Part shown: piece by piece, positions 23,290 to 64,000 of the stretch
Position numbering within the stretch: position 1 is the first letter of the stretch
Layout of the letters: every line of letters begins with the position of its first letter
Made by a program: the position numbers and the translations under genes
Notes under the pieces: model-generated
Seen by the model: only the letters and a program-made list of their open reading frames with translations
Databases searched by the model: none
Told to the model about the DNA's origin: nothing
From: Vermamoeba vermiformis
Taxonomy: Eukaryota
DNA: 64,000 nt
Assembly (NCBI GenBank): GCA_045837725.1
Contig: JBEWZL010000214.1
Location: forward strand, 1 to 64,000
Direction: 5' to 3'

Positions 23290-24868
23290 TCACATAACCT
23301 TCGATCTTTTGTCTTTGGTGAATCGCGGCGAATCTCGTTTTCTCTTTTTTGATGATTCTGGTGAGGTTTGGTGCTGAATAACAGGCTCTTCATCGAAATA
23401 AGGATGATTCAACGCTTCTTTCGCGGTTATTCGTTGTGTTGGTTCGAATTCAAGAAGTTTGTTGACCAGATCTACTGCTCGTGGGTCTGCATTTGCTTTT
23501 TCAAATAGCTCGTCTTTCTTTGCAACAAATTCTTCGTATTCCATTCTACTAAATAATCTTGGCTTATCTAACAACTGAAAACATTGTAAAAAACGCGGTC
23601 AAAATGTAAATCTAGATTTGACGGTCGCGATCTGACGTCATCAATTACGTACCAGCTCCGTTAATATCACACCTACAGACCATACATCATTCGGGAATGG
23701 TCTTTGATCGAATGAACAAGCAATGGCCTCTCCAGGTGGTCTGTAATCGAAAGCGCCGGGCGTCCTAAATTTGTCTTTAAGCACATGAGCTGTATCAGGC
23801 GCGTAACCACTGCCGCTAAGGTCAGTCAAGTAGATGTGTGGCTTGTCATTGCGCCATTCCCACACGATGTTTTGTGGAGCTATTGACCGGTGAACAATGA
23901 AGTTCTCGTGGAGCACCGACACTGCCTACAATGTACTATTATCATAACGTATGTAGTATACGACAATAATAAATCGATATTAATAGTATTATTGATAAGG
24001 AATGTAATTTCGGGTTCGTATTATTGATGTATGGTGTTTAATCTAGGGCTCGTATTGTAACAGCTTTATTATAGCTATAATATTTGCATTACGATCGAGC
24101 AGCTGTTTTAACGATACGCAAAGTGTATCAATTAGTGCAATGAATATGAATATTTGCCAATAATGTACTGAATGAAAAGTTGGATCTTACCAGCAACAGT
24201 TGGTAGGTCACGTCTTTTGGATAGTTCTTGAGGACACCGAGATCAAATGGATTATAATACGGTCTAATGATATAGTTGTTGAGATTGAGCCATGTAAGGT
24301 CCGGCCATGCAGCGTGAAGTTTGATAATATGCGGACAATTGAGCGGATCCAGTCTTTGATGTGTTGCCATTGCGTGCTCGAAGTGATCGGGTCCAAATAA
24401 TTCTCCGAAGAATTTTTCACTCTTGTAGTCATTGGCCTTGTTCGGAACACTCATAAGACTGAGATATCGTTTTGTTCGTTTTCGTTTTCGGTTTAGTTTT
24501 ACTGCTTCTTGAACTACAGTGTAGTTGTTGTAATCTGCTGGCCATTTAAAGCCTGCGAAGCTGGAAATGGAGTTAATAATTGTGCTGATAATAATAATAA
24601 TTAACATGAAATTGGCCACTGTAACGAAGGCTGCAAACAACAATTACGCGAAATTATTTTTAGCTTAAATATTGAAAATTTTGACCAACTGCTAATTATT
24701 TCAGTATACTAAGTGACTTACCGATAGTTTTTTTTGACGTAGATTGGTAACGGCACGGGTAAGACACAATCGAAAATAGATGTTGCTTCCCACTCGATCT
24801 AAATTGCAATTAGTGTCGTCTGCATTAACGTACACTATTACATAGTGTTTCGAGATTCTTTTCTTCAT
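23290..24868 (-). CDS. Divergent CDK/CMGC-like kinase-fold protein, probable pseudokinase (copy 1)
   Basis: '[11 protein letters not shown]' in the HRD loop, 'TDLS' at the DFG position, 'YRPPGE', 'DVWSVG' and '[13 protein letters not shown]'. Basic NLS-like tail. Confidence 0.8.
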
Positions 24869-40410: not shown

Positions 40411-43400
40411 TTAATAATAATCTTCATCATTTTTGGGCGATTTGTTCTCATCTGTCGACGTGAAATAACTGACAAATTCAACCAAGTTGTTATTCGCCTT
40501 AACTGCCGCTACAAGTGGAGCCTTTTGTTCGTCAGTAAAATTCGTTTGAACGCTCAGCAACTTGATGTGCGTTAGTGAAGTGCTTTTGCGAATGAGTTCT
40601 GTGAGCAGATCTAGCTCGGGAAGTTCCATCATAACTGCAATCTTTAGCCACTTGATCTTATTACTACTAGCCAATGCTGCAAATATATTTCGCAAATATT
40701 CCCCGAAAAAGATTAACCTGTTGCTTTCGTAAATATCCGAGAGGTCCAAGTATTCAATGTTGCAGCTCGGTTGGCTCAACCAATCAGAAATCGCCTCCAT
40801 TAGTTCACGCACATTAGAGTCGCCCTTAATAACTGCATGGTTAAGATCGAGAGTTTTGAGCGATGTGTTGTTCCAAAAAGCCTTCGCAAGAGCAGATCCA
40901 GCACCGTATTCCAACTCGGCACGCGGAATTTCCAACGACTCCAATTTTGAATCTTCGCGTGAGATTAGATTTACTAAGTGTTTCATTTGTTCTGGTGTAA
41001 TTTGCTTAAGTTCTGCATTCAATTTTTCGAGTTTTGTAGTCACCGCCAAGAACGACAGATCCGTCAAAGTTATTCGACCAAGATTTCGCAGTGAAGGTAT
41101 ACTTAGCATCCTTGACGTTGATAGTGGATCAGTCATATAGCGCCAATGTGTGATAGTTTGTAACGACGTTTTTTGTGGTAATTTTTGCATGAGAAGTCTG
41201 GTCAGATCTCGATCCACCACTTTAACAAACTCCGTACGACCATCATCGGTAGTGATCCGCTTCATTCCAAGGTCATTTGGGGCTATAGTCTCCAGTGTCT
41301 TCGATTCTGCAATTCCTCGAAGAATTTCAATTTCGCAATCGGAGGATTCCGTGCCGCGAATAGTTGCAAAGTGTTTTAATCCGTTCTCTTTTCTGCAAAG
41401 ATGTGAAATTGCTTTAGCCAACTCCAAGTTTTCTATTTTGTCGAATATAAGTGTTTCTAAGGGCACCGTAGTAGTTGTAAGTGCTTTAGCAAGTGGTGTT
41501 CGATCCGGATTCCAGTCTTCCAGATCTTTGTTTTGAATATGGATTTTTCGTAACTGACATTTAGGATGCATTAAAAATATCGCTAGTTTTTCATAAGCAT
41601 CTGTATAATCTCCGGTAATTATCAACTCTTCAATTCTGCTCGGATCTTCCATTTTGGTCAAAAATTCAATTATTCTGCCTTCAATCAATCCTAATCTGCC
41701 GCCCATATTAATACTCTTAATCTCGTTATTGAGATTCAAATATTCTTCGATTTTTTGCGCTAATGCATTCAATGCCGTTCTATTCTCTTCTCTAATCTCG
41801 CTGTAAAATTTCAACGCTAGACCACTGGCACCAGTTGATAAATCGAGGCTAGTCATGCCCACGCCATCTTGCGTATACTCATTCATCCACGTGTCAATTT
41901 GACGGGTGACGAGCTGGAACCGAAAATCAACTTTTTTCGGCCCCTCTGAAACTACCTCGATTGGATCGTCTTTCAAAACCTCGTAGAACTCGTTCATTAA
42001 TTTTATGTCTTCTCCTTGTAACGTCTCATCAATGTACTTCTTGAACTGTTCAGGTGTCATCTTGCCACTGCCGTCAGTCTCGACAATCACGTGACTGAAC
42101 TGAGGTTCGAGCCACGGATACTTGACGTCATCGTCGCTGTCACCACGCACAACATTGCTGTACAACAGTCCGCTCTTGAGTTCAAAGTGTCGTTGCGTGT
42201 CGGCATTGTGCCACTTGACCGTTGAAATGTGTGACTTGTAGTTGTAAAAATCATTGCCTTCGTACTTCAGCACACCGTGTTCTTTGTACGCACATCCTTC
42301 GCGATAAAACATGACGATCCAGCCTTCAACGACATCAGTGTGGCCTGACATGCATCTGTTGATCGAGAACATGTCTTTCCAGAACGCCGGATCACGTGTC
42401 GTGTGGATCTTGTGCACTTGTGTTTCAGCGCGCTGAAGATAAGCGCTCATCTTTTGTGCAGTGGTCGTGTCTTGATTGAACACTTCAGTGCGCATGCGAT
42501 GAATCTTGTGTTCGAGTGTCTGCCAGTCTTGTTTCGTGCCCAACACTTTCACTCGGGGAATGCCACACAGCGTTGAAATGTAATAGAAGTACGCTGACAT
42601 GGCCTCACAGAATGCTGCTTGAATGGCCAAACGAGATTCCACTGTGCTGCTTGAAAAATTGGCTGTGAAGATACTCGCGTCAATGGGCATATTCTGAGCA
42701 ATGCCTAAACAATACACATGTTACAATAAGATCGAATAATCTTGTAATCTTATTAGATTGCCGCTTAGTATTGTACTGTAAATTAAAAGGTCTATAACTG
42801 TATAAGCTAATAATGTATCGCAATCCTAAAATATTGCTGTCTAGCCTTACCTTCAATGACTTGATTGAGATCTATTTTTGTAACGTCGGTTGTAATAGTC
42901 ATAATTGGCTTCTTTTCAGTTGAATTAGTGAACAGATGTCGGAACACCTCCGGATCCGACAAAATCTCGTCTGCAATCTCGCAAAGTACCGTGTAGAAGA
43001 TCATGTCTGGAGATAAGACCACTGAAAAATGATTGGACCAAGCGAGCATGAGGTAATGCATGAGATTTTGGTGCAAATACGTGGTGTTTGAAGGTTCGGG
43101 CACGGCGTTCTCGATGATTTTTGTTTGTTCGTCGAACTTGGGGAACAATTTCGCAAAAGTAGTTGTCATTTGATAATGAATTTTCACATCATTCAAGTTG
43201 ACGGGGTCTAAGCCCGTGTCAATCATGATTGGATCCGCTTTGAATTCTTGAGGAACCACTGTAATTGGGCGCTAAAGCCAATTAGTCAACAATAGTCATA
43301 TATAATAAGTACTTTGAGCCTTACTATAATATTATCTAACGCCGTTTTCGCTACTTCAGCTAATCTTTGATCAATTTGCATTTGTTCTTCGGAACTCGGA

Positions 43401-44489
43401 GTTTTAACGTCCAAGACTCCCATTTGACCGTTTGCCAGCCAACAGTACATCATATCACCCATTATCTTTGCACTCGTAATAATCGTATCTTTGTCACATG
43501 AAAGTTTGTGTGAGTGCCAAGTCATCTTTTCGACATCCAAGATCCGAAGCTTGTTTCTTTCGTTGGGGCTAACTGGCACGAATATCATTTGCGCGCCTAC
43601 TTTTCCAGCATAATTATATAAATCTATATTGATTCGATCTTCATTAGCTGATTCTTTTGCACGCGCCCACTTGTCCTCTTTCAGATCGTAGTACAACACT
43701 TCACCGAATTCGCTCGCAAGTTTTGCATCATAGTATGGATAGGGGGCGTAGAGTAGTATAATATCGTCGGATAGTGCGGCCAAAAAAGTTTTTGTACTGC
43801 GCTCTTGTGGGTGCTGGCCGATCCCTTCTTCCGCGCTTGTTGAAATTTCATTCGTCGATGTGTTGAACCGATACACTTTCTTTTCGAGTGACGAACTAAA
43901 GTTATCATAGTAATATATTGTATCGCCAACAATAGCAAATGCGTGAATATGGTACAGCTTGCGATGAGATTTAACCTGGATTTGGCGCCATTGTTTTTGA
44001 ACGGTGTCGAAACAAGACCATTTATCGTCAGACAGGACCCAAATATTAGTGCCTATCACTGCGCCTTGAAGATACTCCGAGTTGTAAGCAAATGATGGCG
44101 TCGTTTGGATGGAGGACCAAGAACTAGATTTGGTATCAAAGACTGAAATTACGGCAGAAGCTGTTTCTTTGGTATTTTCTGATATTCCACCAAGGTAATA
44201 TATATTGTCACCTACGGTAACGGCAAGACACCTCTTTCGTGGAGTTGGTGTAGGTCCGTTGGTTTGGATCAGTCGTAAATTAAACTGTAAAATTTTTTAG
44301 ATTAGTCTACTAGGTATTTTCTATCGTTTGTAAGTACCAACATAAATAATTAACATTTTTACTATTTTTCTGAGCGAAATTGAATTTAAAGACTAAATCC
44401 ACGTGCGCGACTACTAGTGGATTACTGTAAGCACTAAGATAATAATTGGCTTACTAAATCGATAAACTTACTGAAGAAATATTTTCCAT
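40411..44489 (-). CDS. Kelch-repeat + DUF4419-like + LRR protein (copy B, intact)
   Basis: 'MENISS' exon, then a Kelch exon ('GPTPTPRKRCLAVTVGDNIYYLGG'). A short GT-AG intron (about 43273-43325) joins it to the DUF4419-like exons and LRR tail of ORF 40411..42717. Confidence 0.8.
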
Positions 44490-51625: not shown

Positions 51626-52870
51626 TTAATTGTACATGAGCGAGGCGAGATCCGGCTTGATGTACGGCAGAGGCATTCCACCTTCAACAGCAGCAACAGC
51701 TTCTTGAGCATCAGAAGTGCGATGAGCAATGAAGTATTGTTGCAGAGTAGCGGTGCTGACGTTGCGATTGGCAGCTCTGAATTTACCAACTTTTTCTACG
51801 AAATCAGCGGTCAGATCTGCACCAGCTTCAGGATAGAATTGCTTGAACATCAATTCGATCTGTTCGTCGGTGATAACTGAAGGATATTGCAAGTGCATGT
51901 CGACTCGGCCAGGACGGATCAAGGCAGGATCCAAACGATCAATGTGGTTCGTAGTCAAGACGAAGATAGAGGCGTCCTTGCCACCAATGCCGTCCAAAGC
52001 ATTAAGCAAGCCGCTGAAGGACAATGGAATATTCTCGAGCTTGCTGCGATCTGCAGTAAAAAGCGCATCCACGTCTTCCAAAACAACCACGCAGTTCTTC
52101 GGTACGCGTTGCAAGGCCTTCTTGAGCGCAGAATCGGTCATATGAGGGTCTGAAATATGCAAATAGGCAACGTGGCGGTCAATGTGAGAAGCCAAAGCCG
52201 AGATCGTGGAAGTCTTGCCGGTACCAGGCGGGCCGTAGAGCAAATAAGATCTCTTGTAGGGAATGCCGTGCTTAGCGTACCATCGAGCAGTATCTTTTTC
52301 GAGGAAATTGTTGACGTCGTCGATAAGCTTTTGTTTGAGAGCGGCAGGCAAAATGACTGTTTCCATATCTCGTTTGCGCTTGACGATAGACTTGGGCCAG
52401 TACTGATTATCAATGTCGTAAGAGTAGATGTTGATGAGGGCCTTATTGACTTTAGTATCCCATTCGCTGACTTTATCGACGAATTTCTTCAGCAGATCTT
52501 TCTTGCGAGTGCCTTCGACGACCAGGACCAAGGTTTGTAGGTAAACTGCAGCACTAAAAGTACCGACGGGTTTGCCATGAACGGTATGAATAACATGAAT
52601 AGTTTCAGATTCATATTCAATTTTGAAAGATCCGAGGCCCAAAACTAATCTGCATCCGTCTTGTTTAGTGTCTTCAACTTCGTCATCATCGTTGCTTTCT
52701 TGAGCACCCATACGAAGACTACTATCACAATTGCATACGTCAGTCAAATACTTGCAAACAGCAGCGTAGATCTGCTCGTTGGATTGAATCTCCAACGAAG
52801 TGCAACTGTTCGGATCAACCTGAAGAGCCTTTACTTCTTCCAAATTGAAAGGATATCTTGTGGTGTTCAT
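51626..52870 (-). CDS. BCS1-like AAA+ ATPase (intronless)
   Basis: 'WYAKHGIPYKRSYLLYGPPGTGKTS', 'VVLEDVDA', 'SFSGLLNALDG' and 'TTNHIDRLDPALIRPGRVD'. Likely ATG at 52870. Confidence 0.9.
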   Translation of the reverse strand: MNTTRYPFNLEEVKALQVDPNSCTSLEIQSNEQIYAAVCKYLTDVCNCDSSLRMGAQESNDDDEVEDTKQDGCRLVLGLGSFKIEYESETIHVIHTVHGKPVGTFSAAVYLQTLVLVVEGTRKKDLLKKFVDKVSEWDTKVNKALINIYSYDIDNQYWPKSIVKRKRDMETVILPAALKQKLIDDVNNFLEKDTARWYAKHGIPYKRSYLLYGPPGTGKTSTISALASHIDRHVAYLHISDPHMTDSALKKALQRVPKNCVVVLEDVDALFTADRSKLENIPLSFSGLLNALDGIGGKDASIFVLTTNHIDRLDPALIRPGRVDMHLQYPSVITDEQIELMFKQFYPEAGADLTADFVEKVGKFRAANRNVSTATLQQYFIAHRTSDAQEAVAAVEGGMPLPYIKPDLASLMYN

Positions 52871-53404
52871 TGTTGATATCTTGATTTGAATAAACTGTTC
52901 TTTTTCACAGCATTTTATTCCTTTGGCCACAAAATCTATCGCATTTTTTTCTGGCCGGCAGTTAGTGTCTTTACACGAAGAAAATTCGTGTCTACACCGC
53001 AATGTGTACTGATTCCTATCCTTACAGTATACCGCGTTAGCATGTTCTAACACTTTTCTCTTAATACACCCGTCAGCAAATCGAAAGATTTTTCCGTGCT
53101 CAGAAAATGGATGTAGGATCAGCCAAGCCAAGTTAATTTAATAATTACATGATTAATTTAATTATTATATTTTAGACTATATTACGCGATATCGAGCTGA
53201 CATTACAATGCAGCAAAATTAATTAAATCCGGTGTTAGGAATGCAAATCAACGCCCGCCCTAATAAATTCATCATTATTGTTTGACCCGATTCAAGATTA
53301 AGTTAAACATGCAAAATAATTGTTTGCTAGATCGCGACTCCAGTTGTCAACAAAAAAATCTTGGCATAATTGATAAATGTTATAATTATTTTACAATTGA
53401 GTAT

Positions 53405-56400
53405 TTAATGCTGTTTCGTTGATTTTTGTTCGTTGAAGTTAGCCACGGTCACAGAGCCCTCACTGTCCACCACGACACTTGTCAAAGGCACGTGACTTCG
53501 CTTCTTGGCAGTGCCTTTCACACCAGATTCGATGCGCGAGAAAATTCCTTTCTTGGTGCTGCGAATGACTTCGGCACGTGACTTCCAAGTGGTGACGACC
53601 AGCACTGCGATGACGACAAAGGCCAACAAGAAGACTGTTAACAGCTCTCCACGAGCCACCCTGATGGTTTGCAAAGGCAAGTCAATCTTATCGCTAGGTG
53701 AGCCTATAAAACACCGTTAACATTGCACTCAAGCGAGATCTGATCCATCAGTATCGAACACCGGATACAATTGATCGAGTATTATGAACAATGACTTACC
53801 TTTAGTGCGAGTAACAGTGACTGTATCAAGTTGCGTGTGTCGTGGCACGAGCTTGATCTCAAAAGTGCGGATCTCGGTTGGATGCAGCGTGATGAAGGAG
53901 TTGATATCTTCAATCTCTTTGTCTTTTATATCATCAGTCGACGGCGATCGTTTTCTTCGTGCCAAGTTCGCCTCACTGTCAGCTTCTTGCTTGACCTCTT
54001 GTCCAGCCTTCTCCAACGCGTCCTTTGAAATGAACACTCCCTCTTCGTCGGTGTTCTGTTTGTCGAGCTGTGCCTCGTCGACTTGGACGTTGCTGAGGTC
54101 TGAAACACCCGAGGACTTCCATACTCGACGAGTGGACTCTTGTTCTTCAATCGCTATGAAAAGTGCACGTGTCAATAGGGCTGTAACTTCGTGTCAAGTA
54201 CGTGACACGTTCAATTTAAAACTTACGTTGAGTGATGGTCAGTGACTTTTCGCCAATAAATTGCAGCTTGAATGCGTTGAAAAACTCTTGGATCTCGAGC
54301 TTTGTTTTCCTAAGAGAAAAAACTTGTCAGATCGCGTGTCTTGGGAAGTGAGCGCTAGACGTACTTTGCCAGATCTGACTTAATCTTGTCCGATCCCTCG
54401 CTGGTGTGCATTAATCGCAATAACAAGCTCTCTTCACCGGCCAAATACTACAAAAGTTGGTTCATTAGCACTCGTGTTAACAAAAGATGAAAGAATAGGT
54501 GCTTACTCTCAATGTGGTGATATGCACGTTCGAAGGCAACGAATCTAAACATGACTATTAGCACAAGTGTAAAAGAACGCGTTATTACGTACATTTCATG
54601 GGTCTGAAGCTGGTCTCAAAGTTTTCTTTCCACGTGTCCACTAGATTTTCTTGATGTTGAGTCAACGAACTGTCTCTGGCGATGAATGATCGCATAGGAT
54701 TGTTTAAGATCAAACTCAATTCTCTATAACGGTAAACTATTAGTGCCTGGCACGCGATCAGATTCGAATCCGCATCTTACCTAGCGTTGTCATCTGAGAC
54801 GGCGTTATTGTTATAAAGAGCCCATAAAGTGGTAGCAACAACTGATCTGTCGTTATTTGGCTCAGCAAGACCTCTACCGTCATCACGTGGCAAGTTTCTG
54901 TGGATCATCAACTCCAGCGTTCCACCCGCGGGACTTGTCGCACCAATTGAATGACGGTTCAAAATCTATGAAATTGTTAGCAATATGGCACGAGAGTGCG
55001 TGACTTACAGTAAAACGCTCATCTGTTTCTTCGCACTTGAGGAAAGACATGGAGATGCAGGGGTAGTAGTTGTGCTCGGGACGATCGTCTTTACGTTCAC
55101 GCTGCAATACTTCAACGCCGTTATCGGTATAGAAATGTCTGCTGTTGGGTGCAATGGCTGTGTGGTACTTGACAACGACTTCGGTCGCAGATTCAGCCTT
55201 GACTTTGTAATCTTGTTCGATGATCAATTGCGTAGTAGTAGCCTCGGTAGAATACAATTTAATATGCCACTCGAGATCATTGCCCAAAATAATCTAGCAA
55301 AAGAGCGGTTAAATCCAGAGCAGAAAAAATAAAAAAGAAATGCCGCGACCCGGGATTGAACCGGGGGCCTCTAGATCTTCAGTCTAACGCTCTCCCAACT
55401 GAGCTATCGCGGCTTGCCTTGTCCGACCGCCAAATTTTTTAGCGACGCGACGTGTACAGAAAACAATAAACTTGTTTTTCGCTTACCCTTGCTTCTTGAA
55501 CGTGCTCTCCCTTGTAGATAACCAAAAGGTACTTTTGAATTACAGTCGAAGCAGGACTAGTGGTTCGCATAATGTACGCACCACTTCTTTGAGCGTCTCG
55601 GTATGCCATCAACTGGTGCACGTGTTAATAAGCACATCCAATACAATTTTTGGCTTCACTACTTACGTCTTGGTTTAATTGCTGTGTTTTGCCTGTTTTT
55701 TTGTTCAGGATCTTGCCCATCAAACCATTCGTCGAAGAGAAAATGATTTGTAAATTGTCGTTTTCAATGAACGCTGCCTCAGATCCATCAGCGTGAGTGA
55801 TCGCAGCGAAGGAATAAATACTATCAACTTTAGGTCCGTTGTAACCTTCGCGACTCCAAGCTTGAGTGGTAGGCACAGCAGCCAATGCAGTTGTCTCGGG
55901 ATCCACCTTCAAGAAGTAGGTTTCGGCTCCGAGTGGAGACACCTCAGCCAAGAAATACAAATAGAATCCAGTATTGTTTTTCAACGGATCAACGGGAATC
56001 ATCTAGTCATAATGTTAGAGTTAAAAAAAAGTCGAATTGGATCGCGTACCTCGCTCGGCACATGATTGCCTGCAGCATCTGTAACAATAATCTTGTGCTT
56101 GGATTTGACGGTCAAATGTTGGTACTGCTTTCGAGGCCAGCCAAGCGAGTTATGCACGGCAATAACGTAGTCAGTTTTCTCTTCAAAATCTAACACGCGC
56201 AATTCCGATTCAAACTCTGGCGCCGCCTTATCACCAGCCAACAGCACTGACAATGACTTGGCAAGGGCAACTTTCGAGGCATTGTAGCCCTTGTCGAGTC
56301 TGTTCGTGTAGTCTTGAGCCACGAATCCACGAGCTGTACCTGTAATGCCGTCGTGGTGTTGAACCAAGGCTGAGTCCTTTGCAAATAAATCATAATTAAT

Positions 56401-58415
56401 TAAAGCACTAAAGGTGATTACATAGTCTAATTGTTGCACTAGATCCAGATCTGGACTACTGAAAAACACTTACTCTGCGAGCCCATTTGAGATCATAAGC
56501 AGTATCAGCAATGTTAAGAATGTTCTTGCCATTAGGCACATTTCCTTGCACGACCTTGTGATTGGCGAGTGCGACACCAGTCTCTGCAGACTTGATCATA
56601 GCATCCACTTCACGCGAGTGCAACTTCAGTGCAGGACGTGTGGTATAATAGCCCTGTTTATGGTTAGTATATGCCCGCTTAGTATAACACTATACGTACT
56701 GTCCAATAGCTGTCGCCGTTGTCAGCGTACGGGAAGAAATCTCCGAAGAATGAGGGGAACTCGGCCTTCGCGTTGTTGAGCGCGTCAAAATATCGCGAGA
56801 GAGTCGAGTATTGAATGTTAACACCAAAGTCAGGGTTGGCATTGATGTATTCTATCAATATATAAGAAATTGATCCTATTATCAGTTTTTCTGAAGGTAC
56901 GTACTAATGAGCGGATCCATGTTAGAGAACTGTTTGGTGGCATCAACGAACTTAAAGTCATCGCCCCACGGTACCAACAAGTTATTAGTACGATAGGCAG
57001 TGGCTCTGCCCGTCAAAATATTGACGAGTTCTCGCGCACGCTTTGCTTTGTTCTCTTCTGTCGTGGTCATCCAAGTCTCTTCGAAATCAAATCCTCTGCA
57101 ACACTGAAGTTAGCTCATTGCACAATATAACTTTATTTGGTTAATGTTAATGGAATTCCATTGTCAATGAAATGGTCGTCTAATTAGTAAATTAGAATAA
57201 TAACTTACTGAGGAGCAGAATAATGCGTGTGAAGCACGTGAGTCATAATCTTCGAGTCCGCTCTATAATTAATTAATAAGTGTTCGTAGTATCCATAATA
57301 ATATCATTTTCTTACTGGTTCAATCCGTGCCAGATAAATTCCATGTGCTTTGCTGACTTGTATTTGTTCTAGGAAACATTTTCGTTACATTTCGTTCATA
57401 ATAATATAAAATAATTGGTTTGGAGTTACCTTCAAATCGAAGTGAATTCTATTGATAACAAGTGCATCAAATCCTGCTTTCGCGAACAAACTTGGAGTCA
57501 AAGATGAATGACCGAACGGATCAATCTTAAAATAATAAATAATTAGATTTAAAATAATTAATGGTATATTAAGGGTTGATATTTACCTGCCAAGCAACGC
57601 GTGGTTTAACTTTGAAGTTTTCCCACAGGTATTGGTGACCTTCTGTGACCTGATCTATCACTTGATGATAATGCGCATTGGCTTCATCGTTTTGGACCCA
57701 TCCACCTGCAAATTAATTAATATTATCTTTTCAAACAAGTGCGCGGAAATACGGATTAAGTTTGTTCGTTAAACCGGATTTGACAACAAAAAAATAAATA
57801 AATCTTACCAGCGACGAATTCGAATTGCTTGTTATCAATTAACTTCTTTAGCTTCGCTTTGACGTCATTAGTTTGACTCTCGTACCACCGCTCAAAGAAA
57901 GAACTAGTCGTCGGAAAAATTAGAATCACAGCCGGAACTTTGCATGCAAAAAATTGATCGTATAATTATGATAATTAGGACTTACATCTCTGCCCAGACA
58001 AATGTACGCGAAGGATCTTTGGATAACTCGTTGACTACGTTCGTTAAGATCCGAGTTACGCGCATATTAAAATAACCCTAAAAAAGTTTTGTAGTTTTAG
58101 CAGCATGCGATTATAATAATATTAATTCAAGAAGAATATACTAATATGATCATAATATTATTTGATAAAAGGAGAATTCATTTTTTTGAATTTTGAAAAT
58201 AACGATCTGTTTTTAAATTACACAGAAAATCTTCTAAAATCGTGCTAACATTTAATTAATGGATTATTAGCATATAATATTACCTCGAACGTTTCCAACC
58301 ATCCAGGATCGCAATGGGAATGCGGGATCAGATGAACATTCAAAGGTTCTGCAGACGATAGCCCAGCAAAGAGCACAACAGAACAGGCAATAATAAATAA
58401 ATATATATATCTCAT
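53405..58415 (-). CDS. GH38 class II (lysosomal-type) alpha-mannosidase with a C-terminal TM anchor
   Basis: Signal peptide; '[10 protein letters not shown]', 'GGWVQNDEA', 'WQIDPFGH', 'PWGDDF', 'QHHDGITGT', 'SGAYI' and 'DDGRGL'. TM '[17 protein letters not shown]'. Confidence 0.93.
55341..55413 (-). tRNA. tRNA-Phe (GAA)
   Basis: Reverse complement GCCGCGATAGCTCAGTTGGGAGAGCGTTAGACTGAAGATCTAGAGGCCCCCGGTTCAATCCCGGGTCGCGGCA. It has a 7-bp acceptor stem, D arm, CTGAAGA anticodon loop and GGTTCAATCC T loop, and is followed by a T-run Pol III terminator. Confidence 0.97.
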
Positions 58416-58571
58416 ATTACACTATTGTACATGGGTTAAGATTTAAATAATGATGAAACAACGTCAGCAATTTTTTGTCCCATTTTTTTTCAGCCAAATA
58501 ATTCCAGCCCAGCACGCGTACAACTCTATTGCCTATTTTTTCATATTAGTCCATAACACGACACATATAAG

Positions 58572-59586
58572 ATGACGGCAGATAAAAGAAATGATTCAGT
58601 AACAATAGGAGTTCGCTCGATCTTCAGTCGGCCATTTGATTTATTATTATGCTTTGTATTTTTAGTCAAGGCTATTATTGCCGCGTATTCCGATATTATG
58701 AACGCTATAGGTAATTATTGCCAATCAAATTACGAAGTAACGGTCACCAGACAGATCCGGATAGTTATTACGATGCATTCTCTCTACAAATATTAATTAC
58801 ATTATTATATCATATAATTATTAATGTAAATATTAATATTGACGTAAGAAGCGAAAATGAGGCCGTAATTAATTTTTCTCCTTGTAGGTCCGATCGAAGG
58901 CAAGATGTCGCCCGAAACCGTAAAAGATTATGCTTGGCCTCCTAAAATGTGGTGGGACTTATTTTGGTGGTGGACTGACTTGGCAGATCCTCATTTACGC
59001 GTCAATCCAGTCTGGCTCAAGGTCGGATGCGCTTTGTCGGCTTATGTCTATACTCCTTTCTATTTCATTGCCATCTACGCATTTGTGAAAGGTAATATAA
59101 ACGCTTTTAGTTATATAGCATTAAGTCTAACCCTTTTTCGAAAGGACGCAACTGGATTCGTGATTGGGTCCTGATGTGGGGCTGGGGCATGATTTTGACT
59201 GTCGTAAGTAATATTAATATATTTAATACTGTCCCTAAATATATAATAATCGATTGTGTGGCTTAAACATTCCACGAAGATCTGATCCGTTGAATTTGTC
59301 CTCGTTACAAAATGATACAATAAGACATATTCGAATATTACAAATACTTTAGCTAACCCATTCATTAGGTGTTTGTTTTGAGCGAATTAACCATGTCTGA
59401 GAAACATTACAGCAACAACTTGGTGCTCGCTTACATCGGTACGTAAATAATTTACGGTCTTTAAACGTTACCGATGATTAATAATATGCTGCTGTAGTAT
59501 ATGGTGCTTATATTCTATTCCCGTTCTTTGCAATGGTTCGTGTGTGGCCGAGAAATGTTTTTGGTGTAAAAGAGAAAAATGAATAA
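58572..59586 (+). CDS. EXPERA/EBP-domain membrane protein (TMEM97/TM6SF-like)
   Basis: 'RPFDLLLCFVF', 'WWWTDLADPHLRVNPVWLK', 'YTPFYFIAIYAFVKG' and 'YGAYILFP'. Confidence 0.75.
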
Positions 59587-59680
59587 AACTCGTAGTGACA
59601 GTGGCGCAAATGAATGCAAACAGAATAAATTATAAACATACGCAAAATATAATATTTATTTATAGAATCTAAAACGGTAT

Positions 59681-60290
59681 CACCTTTCACGCTTCTTTGT
59701 TACCATTACGCTTTGTACCTTCGTACCGATCCAGTTCTTTGATACTAAATCTCGTAAAATCTTCAGTCGGCGGGCATAAGCGAGCGCACTGTTATCCTTG
59801 TAATGATATAAGCATAAAAATTTAGCAACAAAAGTAAACTACCTTACTACGGTACTCCAAAATAGCTTTTTGCAAATCTAGCAGCTCATAATGCAGTTGT
59901 TGCAAGTCTTGTGAATCATCGAGTACTTTTTGTTGCGCTTCATCTACAAACAGCAGAAATTCATGGTTTGCAATCCGCCTCAGATTTTGCATCTCTTTTA
60001 CCGCATTAAAAGGTTTTATTTTGTTGACAAGTCCTGGATTGCCTTCGAAAGCCGAATCTGTGGAGCTTTCTCCAATGCCTCACTTAAATACAATATTTCC
60101 CAGTCATTTAAAGATGTAATTAGAAAATATTTGGCCGGATAGCTGGCAGTAAGTTCTTCATCTACTAATTCTGCTCTCGCGATCAAGTATTTTATTTCCT
60201 CGATCGGTGCCTCGGGAACAACACTATGGTGTCGGTTAGTATATACTAATAGCTATTAAAATATTTGACTTACATAGTGGAGTTATTCAC
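59681..60290 (-). pseudogene. Fragmentary coding exons of an unidentified gene
   Basis: Splice-bounded segments 'VVPEAPIEEIKYLIARAE...', 'MKRNKKVLDDSQDLQQLHYELL...' and '...VMVTKKRER*'. No coherent start was found. Confidence 0.3.
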
Positions 60291-60400
60291 CGTAGTTACA
60301 ATTTGTGCAATTAAAAGTGTATTTTGTAAAAAGAAATAAAGTATGTTTATTTAAAATGACGTTTGGTTGTATTTTGTGTTCGACAGATCACAGAGAGTGC

Positions 60401-62275
60401 TCAGTGGTAGGGATAATAGCGTGAAGGAGTGCGGCTGAGGTGTGGGTCAGGTGGATAGTAGTCAGGAACAGGCACATAACGCGTCTCAACAGGTCGTGGA
60501 GCGGGCACGTACACAATCTGTAAAGTCGTTACTCACTGACTTTAATGCTGTAATGAATTTACCTTCTCGGGAGATTGAAATGTCGCCTCTGCTGGCACTG
60601 GTGTGAGTATACTCCCCTTAGTAGAGAGCTTTGACAATGTTGTCTTCGTCCTCTCCACATCTTCGCTAAGTGCAGCAAATTGAGCCGTCAATTCTTTGAT
60701 TTTGCTCAACTTGTTATTAATGTCATCTTGAAGCTCAACAATTTGATTCTGCTGACTTGAAAGTTGCTGGTTTACCCGAGTGAGCTGTTGCTGAAGTTTT
60801 ACGACGTCGTCATTTGCAGCATAAGCAACACTCTGTTGCGGGGCATCGAGATCTTCCAAATTATCGTCAAGCTGAAACAATTGCTTCTCAGTTCTTTGTC
60901 TCTTAGCTGGGGGGTTGACTGTCACTTCACGCTTTCGCTTTGACGACCGCGTGATTGGTACCTCGCTTTCAGAACTCTCCGAACTTTCAATGCTTTTGAC
61001 TGGTGCAGGAAGTGGTGCTCTGCGAGTGGGCTTCAGCTTTGTAGCTCTCTTTTCTTTGGCAGCGTTAACACTCGCAGTTGCTGCCTCCAAGTGGTTCTTC
61101 CAGGATGAGGACATTGCAGGAGTGACTCGGTACTGCTTGCGAATTATCTCTCCTGGAGAGGGAGTTCGAAAGATGATGTTTCCAGTTGTAGTGTCTCGAA
61201 CAGCTAACTTGATAATGCGTTTTGATCGCAACAACACAACCGCAACAACAGTACCTTCAGTATTGCCAAAACTGCACGTGTAGCCTCTGCAATAGCCCAC
61301 TGACTGTTGAGCCATTTTGACAACAACTGCAGCGTAAACATCAACCTTTCGTGCAGGCAACTGGGCATGAACGTCAATCAAAGGCTCGGTTCCAGCCTCG
61401 ATGTACAAGTAACAGTCGTCGTTGACTACTTTGACATACTCCAAACCATTATCGATAAAATCTAATATTGATTAACAAAAAGTTACGGTAGTTTGATCAA
61501 AACGCTTACCGGTCCAATTTTCTTCAGGCAGTCGCTCAGGAGGTGTATTGTTTCAGGTCCGTCATACACTGGTCCAATACTGGAATCATCTCCGATATTG
61601 TCTGGTTGCGTTACGACCACGTTAACGTCAGGACATTCTACAAGGAGCTTCGAGTTTTTAATTCGCTCGTGGCCAATGACCACAACATTTGAATTAAGGC
61701 ATAGCACTCGTCTGAGTGGCGATTAGCAATTATAGCAGCATTTAAATACTATTTTTAACTTACTTGTTATGTTTTTCGACTGTCGAAACGGCCCAATTGC
61801 CGAGGCGAATAATCGACCCCTCTTTAATTTCCGAGCGTTTAACCAAATGACTCAGGGATGGATGTAGAACACCAATAATAGTGTGTTGGCCATCAGAGAG
61901 TGTTAATCTATGGATCAGGTCGTGGTTAGACCTGGATCAGATGCAACATGTTGAAAAAATGAAGGATAATTGAAGAAAGAAAAAAACGATTATGCACCAA
62001 ATAATGCGGAAATTATTTCATCATTGCTAATTAACGAAATTCGATGGGGTTTTTTGATTTATGTAATTTAATTTATGATCTAAAACTCTACCAAAAATCA
62101 CAGCGATGCTTGATAGTGTCTCGATTTTATGGCGTTTATAATATTATTGCTAATTGTCAACTTACTTGTAATAACTTGGATTCCTGGATGCAGATGGCGA
62201 ATGGATTTTAACCACTTGCAAATCAATATTATTGGGATTGGTCCCTTGTAAAATCGCTGCTATAGATGTTGACAT
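60401..62275 (-). CDS. Protein with an RPA70 N-terminal-like OB fold, central unknown domain, basic linker and coiled coil
   Basis: Five in-frame exons: 62275-62166, 61907-61764, 61711-61510, 61461-60563 and 60517-60401. The N-terminus 'MSTSIAAILQG...DLQVVKIH...[42 protein letters not shown]...KRVLCL' follows the RPA1 N-domain pattern. Confidence 0.75.
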
Positions 62276-62565
62276 GTTGTTGATACAGCAATAATGTTAG
62301 TAATTTGACTTGGTGCAAACAAAAAAACCAAGGGACCTGTCAACAACCTGTCAACTCGAAACTAACATAATAGTGTTATTTACTATCATTACTAAGCACT
62401 ACAATTGGTTGTGAGAGGTCGCAGGGCCATACAAAGGTAAATCATAATTATAGCTTTTATGACAGTCAACCTGACCTCCACATCCAGGTTGAACACAGAC
62501 CCACGACCTTATGTACAGTGCTGTGACACTATTATAATTAATATATCACCTGTTAAATCAGCCCA

Positions 62566-64000
62566 ATGAGTGACAGATCTACTGGTAAGAAAATAATTTA
62601 TTTAATAATTTTCGAAAATTGTTCGGGTTTTACGTAACGTCGTTTTAATACCAAATACTATAGATTCCTGGGTCGATTCCATTGATATGTCAGATATATT
62701 TAATGACCATGTTGATGACACCACTACAACAGATCCTTTCGACGACGTTGACATGTCGTCGATGTTTGAAGGTATTTTTATTACGCGCAGTAATTGCGAA
62801 AATTAATGATTATTTGCCTACAGATTGGGACCAAAATATAGCATTAGTTTATCAACCTCCTAACAAACGACACTATAATTCAAAGAAATCGACAGTTGTC
62901 GAGCGACGCCAGCCAACTGTGAAACTTGCACGCGGTTCACGATTTGAAAACATTCAAAATGAACAATGCTGCTCACAACAATGCTTGCAATTGCTTTCAT
63001 TATCTCAATTGAAGCGAATTCGATTACCTTTTATTACCAAAAATGAAAGACAAAGGTGTGTATGGCATGTCCTTAGTATGTTGCAACTAACACTCAACAG
63101 ATCAGACTGGTTGTTGGATGTTTTGCGAGCTTCATCGATTAACAAAGGAGATGCATTAAAGATAGTATACAAGCTTGACGGTCATGTAGTGTGTCGAACT
63201 GCGTTCACGAAAGCATTGGGAATCAGCGCAACAAAACTTTCATCAGTAGTTAACTTGGTGAAAACACAAGCAGTAGTTATTGTCCCCCATGGTAATAGTC
63301 TTCGACAATACAAGACTCCTCAGCGCGACAAAGTGGAAGCCTTCATTCTTGGATTGACAAATGTATTTTTTGACGAGCAACCGGACTCTGACGAATGGCA
63401 TTGCCCAATCATCTTGAACAAAAAACTCTTATATGAAGAGCTGTTAGAACAGAATACTCATAATCCCCCTTCAAAGCAAGTGTTTTACAGCACAATTCAA
63501 CATTACCAATGGATCAAATTTCCAAAAAACACAAGGCTAGGAAAATGCGATGAATGTGTCGAGCTCAGAATGTAAGTACATATGTTTATAGCAGCAGATC
63601 TGATTCCGATGTAGAGAACTAAATCGAGCGAAAGGGGAAACAGCAGTTCGAGTGCAGCTTATCAAACAAAAGTTGCGTGATCACAACACTCTCCAAAAGC
63701 TTGAACGTCTAACTTACGACACACGAAAAACATTTGATGCTACAATTCTATGGCAGACTATCTGGGATGGCTACTCTGGAGTTTTAATCCCGCACATTTC
63801 ATGGCCAAATTTCCCAAAGAGTTGGCTTCGCTTGCCGCGTCTTCGATTACAGGTTTCGGGTGTGATCAACCATAACTTGGGAGTGAAAGAGCTGTATGTG
63901 TCTATTGCCCAGCAATTTGATCACGACAGCAACTACAGCATGAATCTACTGGCTATTCATATCTCAAAACAGCTTGCCAATGGACACTCTCTCCCTTCAA
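62566..64000 (+). mobile_element. Sola-like (DUF7869-like) DDD/E transposase gene, spliced, running off the window end
   Basis: Acidic N-terminus; 'CCSQQCL', 'YKLDGHVVCRTAFTKALGIS', 'HGN', 'IKFPKNTRLGKCDEC', 'H..LQKLERLTY', 'IWDG...PH', 'GVINH' and 'DSNYSMN'. Introns at about 62585-62663, 62772-62823, 63056-63100 and 63572-63614. Confidence 0.7.

Follow-up and report, generated by a model that had tools for sequence, protein, structure and literature searches.

A conserved head-to-head pairing of a DUF7869 transposase-like gene with an RPA70N-coiled-coil gene in Vermamoeba vermiformis: a possible two-gene DNA transposon

The two genes and the region between them

Analyzing 64,000 nucleotides of Vermamoeba vermiformis DNA (contig JBEWZL010000214.1, positions 1 to 64,000; hereafter the window), we found two spliced genes lying head to head at its right end. 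The minus-strand gene (60401-62275) is predicted to encode a protein of 482 residues that joins an OB domain of the RPA70N type to a coiled coil, and the plus-strand gene (62566-64000), of which the window holds the first 405 codons before its end cuts the gene, appears to encode a transposase-like protein of the DUF7869 family. The two start codons, at 62275 on the minus strand and at 62566 on the plus strand, are those of divergent genes and lie 291 nt apart; our splice models confirmed this arrangement, which an initial annotation of the DNA had proposed. What is new here, as far as the sequences tell, is the pairing itself: a DUF7869 transposase-like gene and an RPA70N-coiled-coil gene that are kept together by conservation and selection. 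We tentatively interpret the pair as a low-copy, two-gene cut-and-paste DNA transposon that carries an adaptor protein, or as a very recent derivative of one, an interpretation to which we give not quite an even chance. Much of the comparison below relies on a metagenome contig of 2894 bp (JAESGF010000562.1, here L001), on which both genes recur.

We modeled the minus-strand gene, which has relatives by sequence, with five exons (62275-62166, 61907-61764, 61711-61510, 61438-60563, and 60517-60401, the last ending in TGA), separated by GT..AG introns of 258, 52, 71, and 45 nt. The last junction (PEK/IVYVPAP) was confirmed by the related protein P0004, the same gene as the partner gene of L001, which is intronless at this place and reads straight across it. 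The 482-residue model contains all the peptides in which the initial annotation had recognized the pattern of an RPA1 N-terminal OB domain, followed, again as described there, by a further domain, a KR-rich linker, and a coiled coil. The OB domain (61680-62275, minus strand; residues ~1-100) spans exons 1 and 2 and the start of exon 3. Exon 2 alone, in a 58-residue frame, matched positions 40-88 of the 101 positions of the Pfam profile Rep-A_N (PF04057) with 31.3 bits (E 2.1e-7), above the gathering cut-off of 26.7 bits; the initial annotation had named the absence of this very match as grounds for giving up its idea. A weaker match of the same exon to BRCA2 OB1 is consistent with an OB fold, and the OB-domain part of the product is basic, with an isoelectric point (pI) of 9.6. 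Neither the short exon 2 nor its profile gave a direct PDB sequence match with solved RPA70N chains.

A true RPA1 continues from its N-domain into DBD-A, DBD-B, and DBD-C with a zinc finger. Our Pfam scans used separate exon frames and covered exons 1-4 of the minus-strand gene; in these exons and in P0004, no match to the further RPA1 domains (REPA_OB_2, Rep_fac-A_C, tRNA_anti-codon) appeared at E up to 1, in keeping with the earlier remark that the single-stranded-DNA-binding OB domains and the zinc finger of RPA1 were not apparent. As no match of the DBD-A/B/C or zinc-finger type was found in exons 1-4, we ruled out that the gene product is RPA1 itself.

The OB domain is followed by a beta-rich middle region (61115-61679, minus strand; residues ~101-260), which is split by intron 3 and gave neither a Pfam match nor a PDB sequence match. 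Strands are predicted in it at low confidence, with a mean predicted local distance difference test score (pLDDT) of 54 for the big exon and 45 for P0004, and the region is conserved in the relatives P0001, P0002, P0004, and P0018. Next comes a basic linker rich in Ser and Glu (60860-61114, minus strand), with 18 K/R per 85 residues, a pI of 10.3, and a run SSESSESE; its residues S153, S158, E159, K167, R168, K169, K179, and Q181 are invariant in six of six sequences, and its KRK and KRQ(R/K) clusters look like nuclear localization signals, which makes a function in nuclear import putative. The coiled coil (60617-60823, minus strand) comprises ~70 residues and was predicted as a single long helix, covering residues 206-274 of the big exon at a pLDDT of 80-93, with the same result for P0004. 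The Pfam matches of the big exon (309-residue frame) were confined to sub-threshold coiled-coil families, and the PDB chains that it matched were coiled-coil noise. A C-terminal tail rich in Pro and Tyr (60401-60606, minus strand; 13 P and 7 Y in 52 residues), which spans intron 4, has the motif VY.P.AP.PVETRY..P.Y..P.P in common with P0004.

Intron 3 is the one irregular point of the model. With the only good donor (61509), its natural acceptor AG (61463/61462) would give an intron of 48 nt and shift the reading frame by one base; the sole in-frame alternative is the 71-nt intron of our model, which drops the peptide DFIDNGLE, conserved in L001 (DFISQGLEF) and in P0018. Behind this anomaly (61439-61510, minus strand) lies an assembly error of 1 nt, a genuine frameshift, or a shift of the acceptor. 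In a public run with the same species label and near-identical sequence (here X2), the contig over 60831-62513 has one gap relative to the window.

The plus-strand gene starts with the ATG at 62566 and has exons at 62566-62584, 62664-62771, 62824-63055, 63101-63571, and 63615-64000. The gene is present as the initial annotation had described it, except that one intron had been missed: an in-frame GT..AG intron of 45 nt (63056-63100), which L001 has at the same place. The N-terminus (62566-62771, plus strand) is indeed very acidic, with 13 D/E and 1 K/R among its first 42 residues, and contains two motifs, W..SID.S..F.D and DDVD.SSMF, that are both conserved in L001; we regard it as a candidate ligand of the partner's OB domain. 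The start of a catalytic-type domain (63766-63996, plus strand) is marked by the conserved IWDGYSG..IPH, with a D at 63766-63768, and the match to DUF7869 (PF25273) begins at 63838. Within the window fragment, this match reached 25.4 bits (E 1.2e-5; positions 8-58 of the 192-position profile, as far as the window reaches), just under the cut-off of 26 bits, and the orthologue in L001, whose exon is 74% identical to that of the window, exceeded the cut-off with 82.2 bits (E 4.6e-23; profile positions 8-102). By profile, the plus-strand gene, which the initial annotation had labeled Sola-like, thus belongs to DUF7869, a family against which the initial annotation had suggested checking it. In L001, the catalytic-type domain runs on into QSDNCWRENKN, and the conserved D residues may be catalytic. 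Neither the transposase exon nor its profile gave a PDB sequence match.

The 290 bp between the two start codons (62276-62565) presumably form a shared bidirectional control region or promoter. They contain blocks common to the window and L001 on both sides of the midpoint, namely TTGGTGCAA (62310-62318), CTGTCA (62337-62342), AGGTCGCAGG (62416-62425), and CAGACCCACGA (62496-62506), and CTGTCA occurs twice. In the whole window, AGGTCGCAGG occurs once, against a chance expectation of 0.03. The 11-mer CAGACCCACGA has two further occurrences, an exact one at 23479 and one with a single mismatch at 54596; the two sites lie within what looks like coding sequence, and we rejected them as chance occurrences. 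To the eye, the surroundings of the former (23380-23600, minus strand) resemble the C-terminal portion of a protein kinase of the CDK/MAPK type.

Conservation and co-inheritance of the pair

L001 was the only locus returned when metagenome contigs were scanned with the transposase alignment. Searched by tblastn with both spliced proteins, it showed the two genes on the strands that they occupy in the window, minus for the partner and plus for the transposase-like gene. The contig, which is cut inside both genes, holds exons 1-4 of the partner (1024-920, 661-539, 489-295, and 167 to the contig end), and its start codons, at 1024 and 1316, are 292 nt apart, compared to 291 nt in the window. In both genes, window and L001 have their introns at the same positions and in the same phases, and the OB exon of L001 matched Rep-A_N with 24.8 bits (E 2.2e-5), below the cut-off.

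We found both genes to be under purifying selection as judged from codon comparison with L001. The transposase-like proteins are 61% identical in amino acids over 399 codons, with a proportion of synonymous differences (pS) of 0.80, which is saturated, and a nonsynonymous divergence (dN) of 0.34, and the partner proteins are 45% identical over 184 codons, with a pS of 0.68 and a dN of 0.52. These values indicate that selection has retained both genes over a long time. Moreover, the two genes diverged in step: across the six pairs that can be formed from four sources, the identity of the transposase ranged over 61-77% and that of the partner over 34-56%, with a correlation of r = 0.99 between pairs that are not independent of one another.

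Relatives of either gene are few. For the partner, a word-indexed search gave two proteins out of 1992 candidates with an E value no higher than 0.001. When 1.84 billion representatives were searched exhaustively with an HMMER profile, 17 passed the same threshold, of which four are real (P0001, P0002, P0003, and P0004, each seen on 1-2 contigs) and 13 cover the coiled-coil part only. The transposase exon has three relatives among 893 candidates of similar length and no longer ones among 1162 candidates. All three proteins related to the N-terminal region of the transposase come from sources that also have the partner gene, so that copies lacking the neighbor, which the initial annotation had named as telling against its idea, did not turn up among them. 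Judging from matching contig statistics, P0020 (transposase) and P0001 (partner), each on one contig of 13519 bases, very probably share that contig, and the same is true of P0019 (transposase) and P0002 (partner), each of which is on two contigs, the longest having 4679 bases. Searching metagenome contigs for the partner gave no relative among 97 pattern matches, scans of viral contigs gave none among 357 and 17, and scans of prokaryote genome contigs none among 38 and 87; the Protein Atlas had no usable match for either gene. Taken by their sequences, the two genes are one co-inherited unit with conserved linkage. As they have been inherited together in several distantly related genomes, they probably also work as a pair.

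Mobile element or fixed locus

Public sequencing runs of related material gave a mixed picture of the locus. In X2, four contigs on the gene pair differ from the window in 0, 7, 0, and 2 letters over 491, 1683, 303, and 768 bp, respectively, and the noncoding, AT-rich left flank (57443-58490) differs in 27 letters and 20 gaps over 1048 bp. Expressed as divergence from the window, X2 shows ~4.5% in this flank and 0-0.4% across the pair (60311-64000). Summed contig depth in X2, which is not to be read as copy number, ranged from 243 to 287 on the partner gene and from 645 to 900 on the coding region of the transposase, and the depth of single contigs on either side of the partner gene was 415-437. 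A further X2 contig, which has only a 35-nt CDEC core in common with the window, points to a distant paralogue, and a 30-mer from a loose end in X2 had no other occurrence in the window. A water-metagenome run with a close relative (X3) covered all 14 bins of 57.0-60.3 kb but had no depth at all over 62148-63551; what it yielded for the partner gene was one listed piece, ~85% alike (60956-61236), and low depth in a few other bins. Coverage holes by themselves prove nothing. These patterns fit a recently arrived segment that is not universally present, and they hint at extra copies of the transposase and at presence/absence variation of the pair; they may also reflect a locus that is old, fixed, and unevenly covered.

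A small spliced gene without a Pfam match (59680-60312, minus strand) follows directly on the downstream side of the partner gene. Summed contig depth in X2 was ~1430 over 59.8-60.3 kb, compared to ~415-620 nearby, and contigs of X2 and X3 depart from the window sequence at 60004-60008, 60047-60061, and 60312. This segment is therefore multi-copy or rearranged, and an insertion might have its left boundary here. Farther left, we found a gene for an EXPERA/EBP-like membrane protein (58245-59600, plus strand; Pfam EBP at E 0.0011, below cut-off) with one GT..AG intron, the joint of which, 58707 to 58885, is supported by reads of two RNA runs. The window also contains two DUF4419 genes (1043-2641 and 40411-42720), a Kelch-repeat gene (43286-44296), a gene for a BCS1-like AAA ATPase (51626-53137), and a tRNA gene (55341-55413). 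Its DNA, with short GT..AG introns, is eukaryotic, and these introns and genes suggest a little-sampled eukaryote.

We propose that the plus-strand gene encodes a DUF7869-family protein that is, or resembles, a DDE/D-type transposase and that its neighbor encodes an adaptor. Acidic motifs of repair and checkpoint proteins are established ligands of RPA70N. In a similar manner, the basic OB domain of the adaptor would dock onto the transposase at the conserved acidic and hydrophobic motifs of its N-terminus, with the charge of the two parts (pI 9.6 of the OB part, 13 D/E to 1 K/R in the transposase N-terminus) being complementary. Pairing of two adaptors through the coiled coil could then bring two transposase molecules together, and the KRK/KRQR clusters might supply nuclear import. 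By analogy, the adaptor would be the counterpart of the Myb-like second protein of PIF/Harbinger transposases.

Several observations weigh against a transposon. The core of what the initial annotation suggested is strongly borne out, in that linkage, spacing, introns, and motifs in L001, together with co-divergence, establish one unit; neither terminal inverted repeats, nor a target duplication, nor a second full copy was seen in the window, which ends inside the transposase gene. Comparing 59.6-60.4 kb with the intergenic region for inverted repeats gave a score of 23, with shuffled sequences reaching up to 32, and the 64-kb window contains no second copy of either gene. The catalytic domain past the first conserved D falls beyond the window end. 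The family is rare and low-copy, as seen from the four real partner relatives among the 1.84 billion representatives, and at a likeness of at least 85%, X2 offers over the partner gene only the contigs of that gene itself. Conserved spacing, introns, and promoter motifs along with saturated silent sites equally fit an old fixed host locus. Finally, the two RNA runs, which carry the same species label, have reads on 57-59.5 kb and none on 59.6-64 kb. With a likeness of only 90-95%, these reads must come from another strain or species; the species label that the two runs share with X2 appears to span strains or species that differ considerably.

Such a host locus would descend from an old two-gene transposon, or from a transposase and a host partner, that became fixed and immobile in an ancestor and now serves a joint host function, a history that we find quite conceivable, leaning against it all the same. 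The low copy number of both genes, the purifying selection on them, the conservation of spacing, intron positions, and promoter blocks despite saturated silent sites, and the lack of visible transposon ends in the window would all be expected from it, and PMC9710019, PMC5339849, and PMC9392472 provide the precedent of both proteins of a two-gene transposon having been domesticated. It sits less easily with X2, where the pair region is at least 10 times closer to the window than the noncoding left flank and where depth is lower over the partner gene than on both sides of it. Nor would it lead one to expect the coverage of 57.0-60.3 kb next to zero depth on 62148-63551 in X3, which suggests presence/absence variation, bearing in mind that such holes prove nothing.

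The RPA70N protein might also act on the host rather than on its own transposase, recruiting or decoying checkpoint and repair proteins, for example, at the double-strand breaks that excision would leave. The Rep-A_N match and the established docking of repair and checkpoint proteins by RPA70N speak for such a role, and as no single-stranded-DNA-binding RPA domain was matched in exons 1-4, the protein could compete for the partners of RPA70N. Yet no result obtained here favors a partner of host origin, the co-inherited neighbor has the closest conserved acidic motif and makes a simpler ligand, and we consider this role improbable. That the pair is nothing but an ordinary host gene beside an inserted transposon, with the left end of the transposon between the two genes, is scarcely credible. 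A contig break in X2 does lie between the genes, at 62484-62513, where depth steps from 286 to 416. Against this, arrangement, spacing, and motifs on both sides recur in L001 at saturated silent divergence, and the arrangement probably recurs in two more sources; the identities of 61% and 45% exclude that L001 and the window derive from one recent insertion. We therefore rejected chance adjacency and, given that L001 keeps the arrangement on both sides, a transposon end at the contig break.

Comparison with known systems

To our knowledge, two-protein cut-and-paste systems are few, with Harbinger as their paradigm; they are useful for understanding transposase assembly and import, and they are a source from which domesticated pairs of host genes arise. 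HARBI1/NAIF1 and Arabidopsis HDP1/HDP2 are such co-domesticated descendants of Harbinger elements. Were the pair described here domesticated as well, it would be a new example of co-domestication, from a little-sampled group of eukaryotes. The literature that we searched contained nothing on DUF7869, and no link of Rep-A_N or RPA70 with DDE-type transposons came up in it.

Among transposon-borne relatives of RPA1, the RPA-like genes of Helitrons (plant PHRPA and the RPA homologues of animal Helitrons and Helentrons) are single-stranded-DNA binders, according to a passage in PMC4683698. These proteins have their DNA-binding sites and stand beside the RepHel rolling-circle protein, whereas the partner here appears to have only the protein-docking N-domain and lies next to a DDE/D-type transposase-like gene. 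We found no helicase or Rep match in six exon frames of both genes and four frames between 58.9 and 60.3 kb, and with a DUF7869 gene as the neighbor, a Helitron carrying an RPA-like gene was ruled out. The likeness of the partner to RPA70N (DBD-F of RPA1) consists in the above-cut-off profile match on the central half of the domain and in its basic character, and its difference from RPA1 in that DBD-A/B/C and the zinc finger were not detected in exons 1-4.

Cut-and-paste elements able to carry a second, unrelated gene are exemplified by the Sola2-Fanzor1 chimeras, which, in the part of PMC3627910 that deals with them, have captured a second gene and show 4-bp AT-rich target duplications and short inverted ends; in this ability they would resemble the pair here. 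For Sola itself, the pertinent part of a 2017 survey (PMC5751038) reports no detectable similarity to any Pfam domain. The Sola1/2/3 superfamilies are recognized by a Sola-type RNase H-like catalytic domain, 4-bp target duplications, and terminal inverted repeats; for the pair here, the catalytic domain and any element ends fall beyond position 64000.

The closest functional parallel is found in PIF/Harbinger elements, where, according to PMC9392472, nuclear import of the transposase is the work of the Myb-like second protein, which attaches to the transposase at the N-terminal end. There as here, a transposase is co-inherited with a second, non-catalytic protein, and by analogy, the KR-rich clusters and the peptide-docking-type domain of the partner, together with the conserved N-terminal motif of the transposase, may stand for the same division of labor. 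The components differ: in the scanned exons of the pair, DDE_Tnp_4/Plant_tran and Myb/SANT remained unmatched at E up to 1, and the pair instead consists of a DUF7869 transposase and an RPA70N-type OB/coiled-coil partner. As neither defining domain was matched, we ruled out that the pair is a PIF/Harbinger element, the resemblance being functional only.

To the kinds of partner seen in two-protein systems, the pair would add a new one, a coiled coil that bears an isolated RPA70N docking domain. Extending the transposon interpretation, one may imagine a family of cut-and-paste transposons with a docking protein of the RPA70N type of its own, in which acidic transposase motifs mimic RPA-docking peptides and the coiled-coil adaptor assembles the transposase, imports it, and perhaps couples it to RPA-centered repair. 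We regard this larger picture as doubtful; if true, it would represent a second, independently evolved answer to the adaptor requirement that is known from Harbinger elements.

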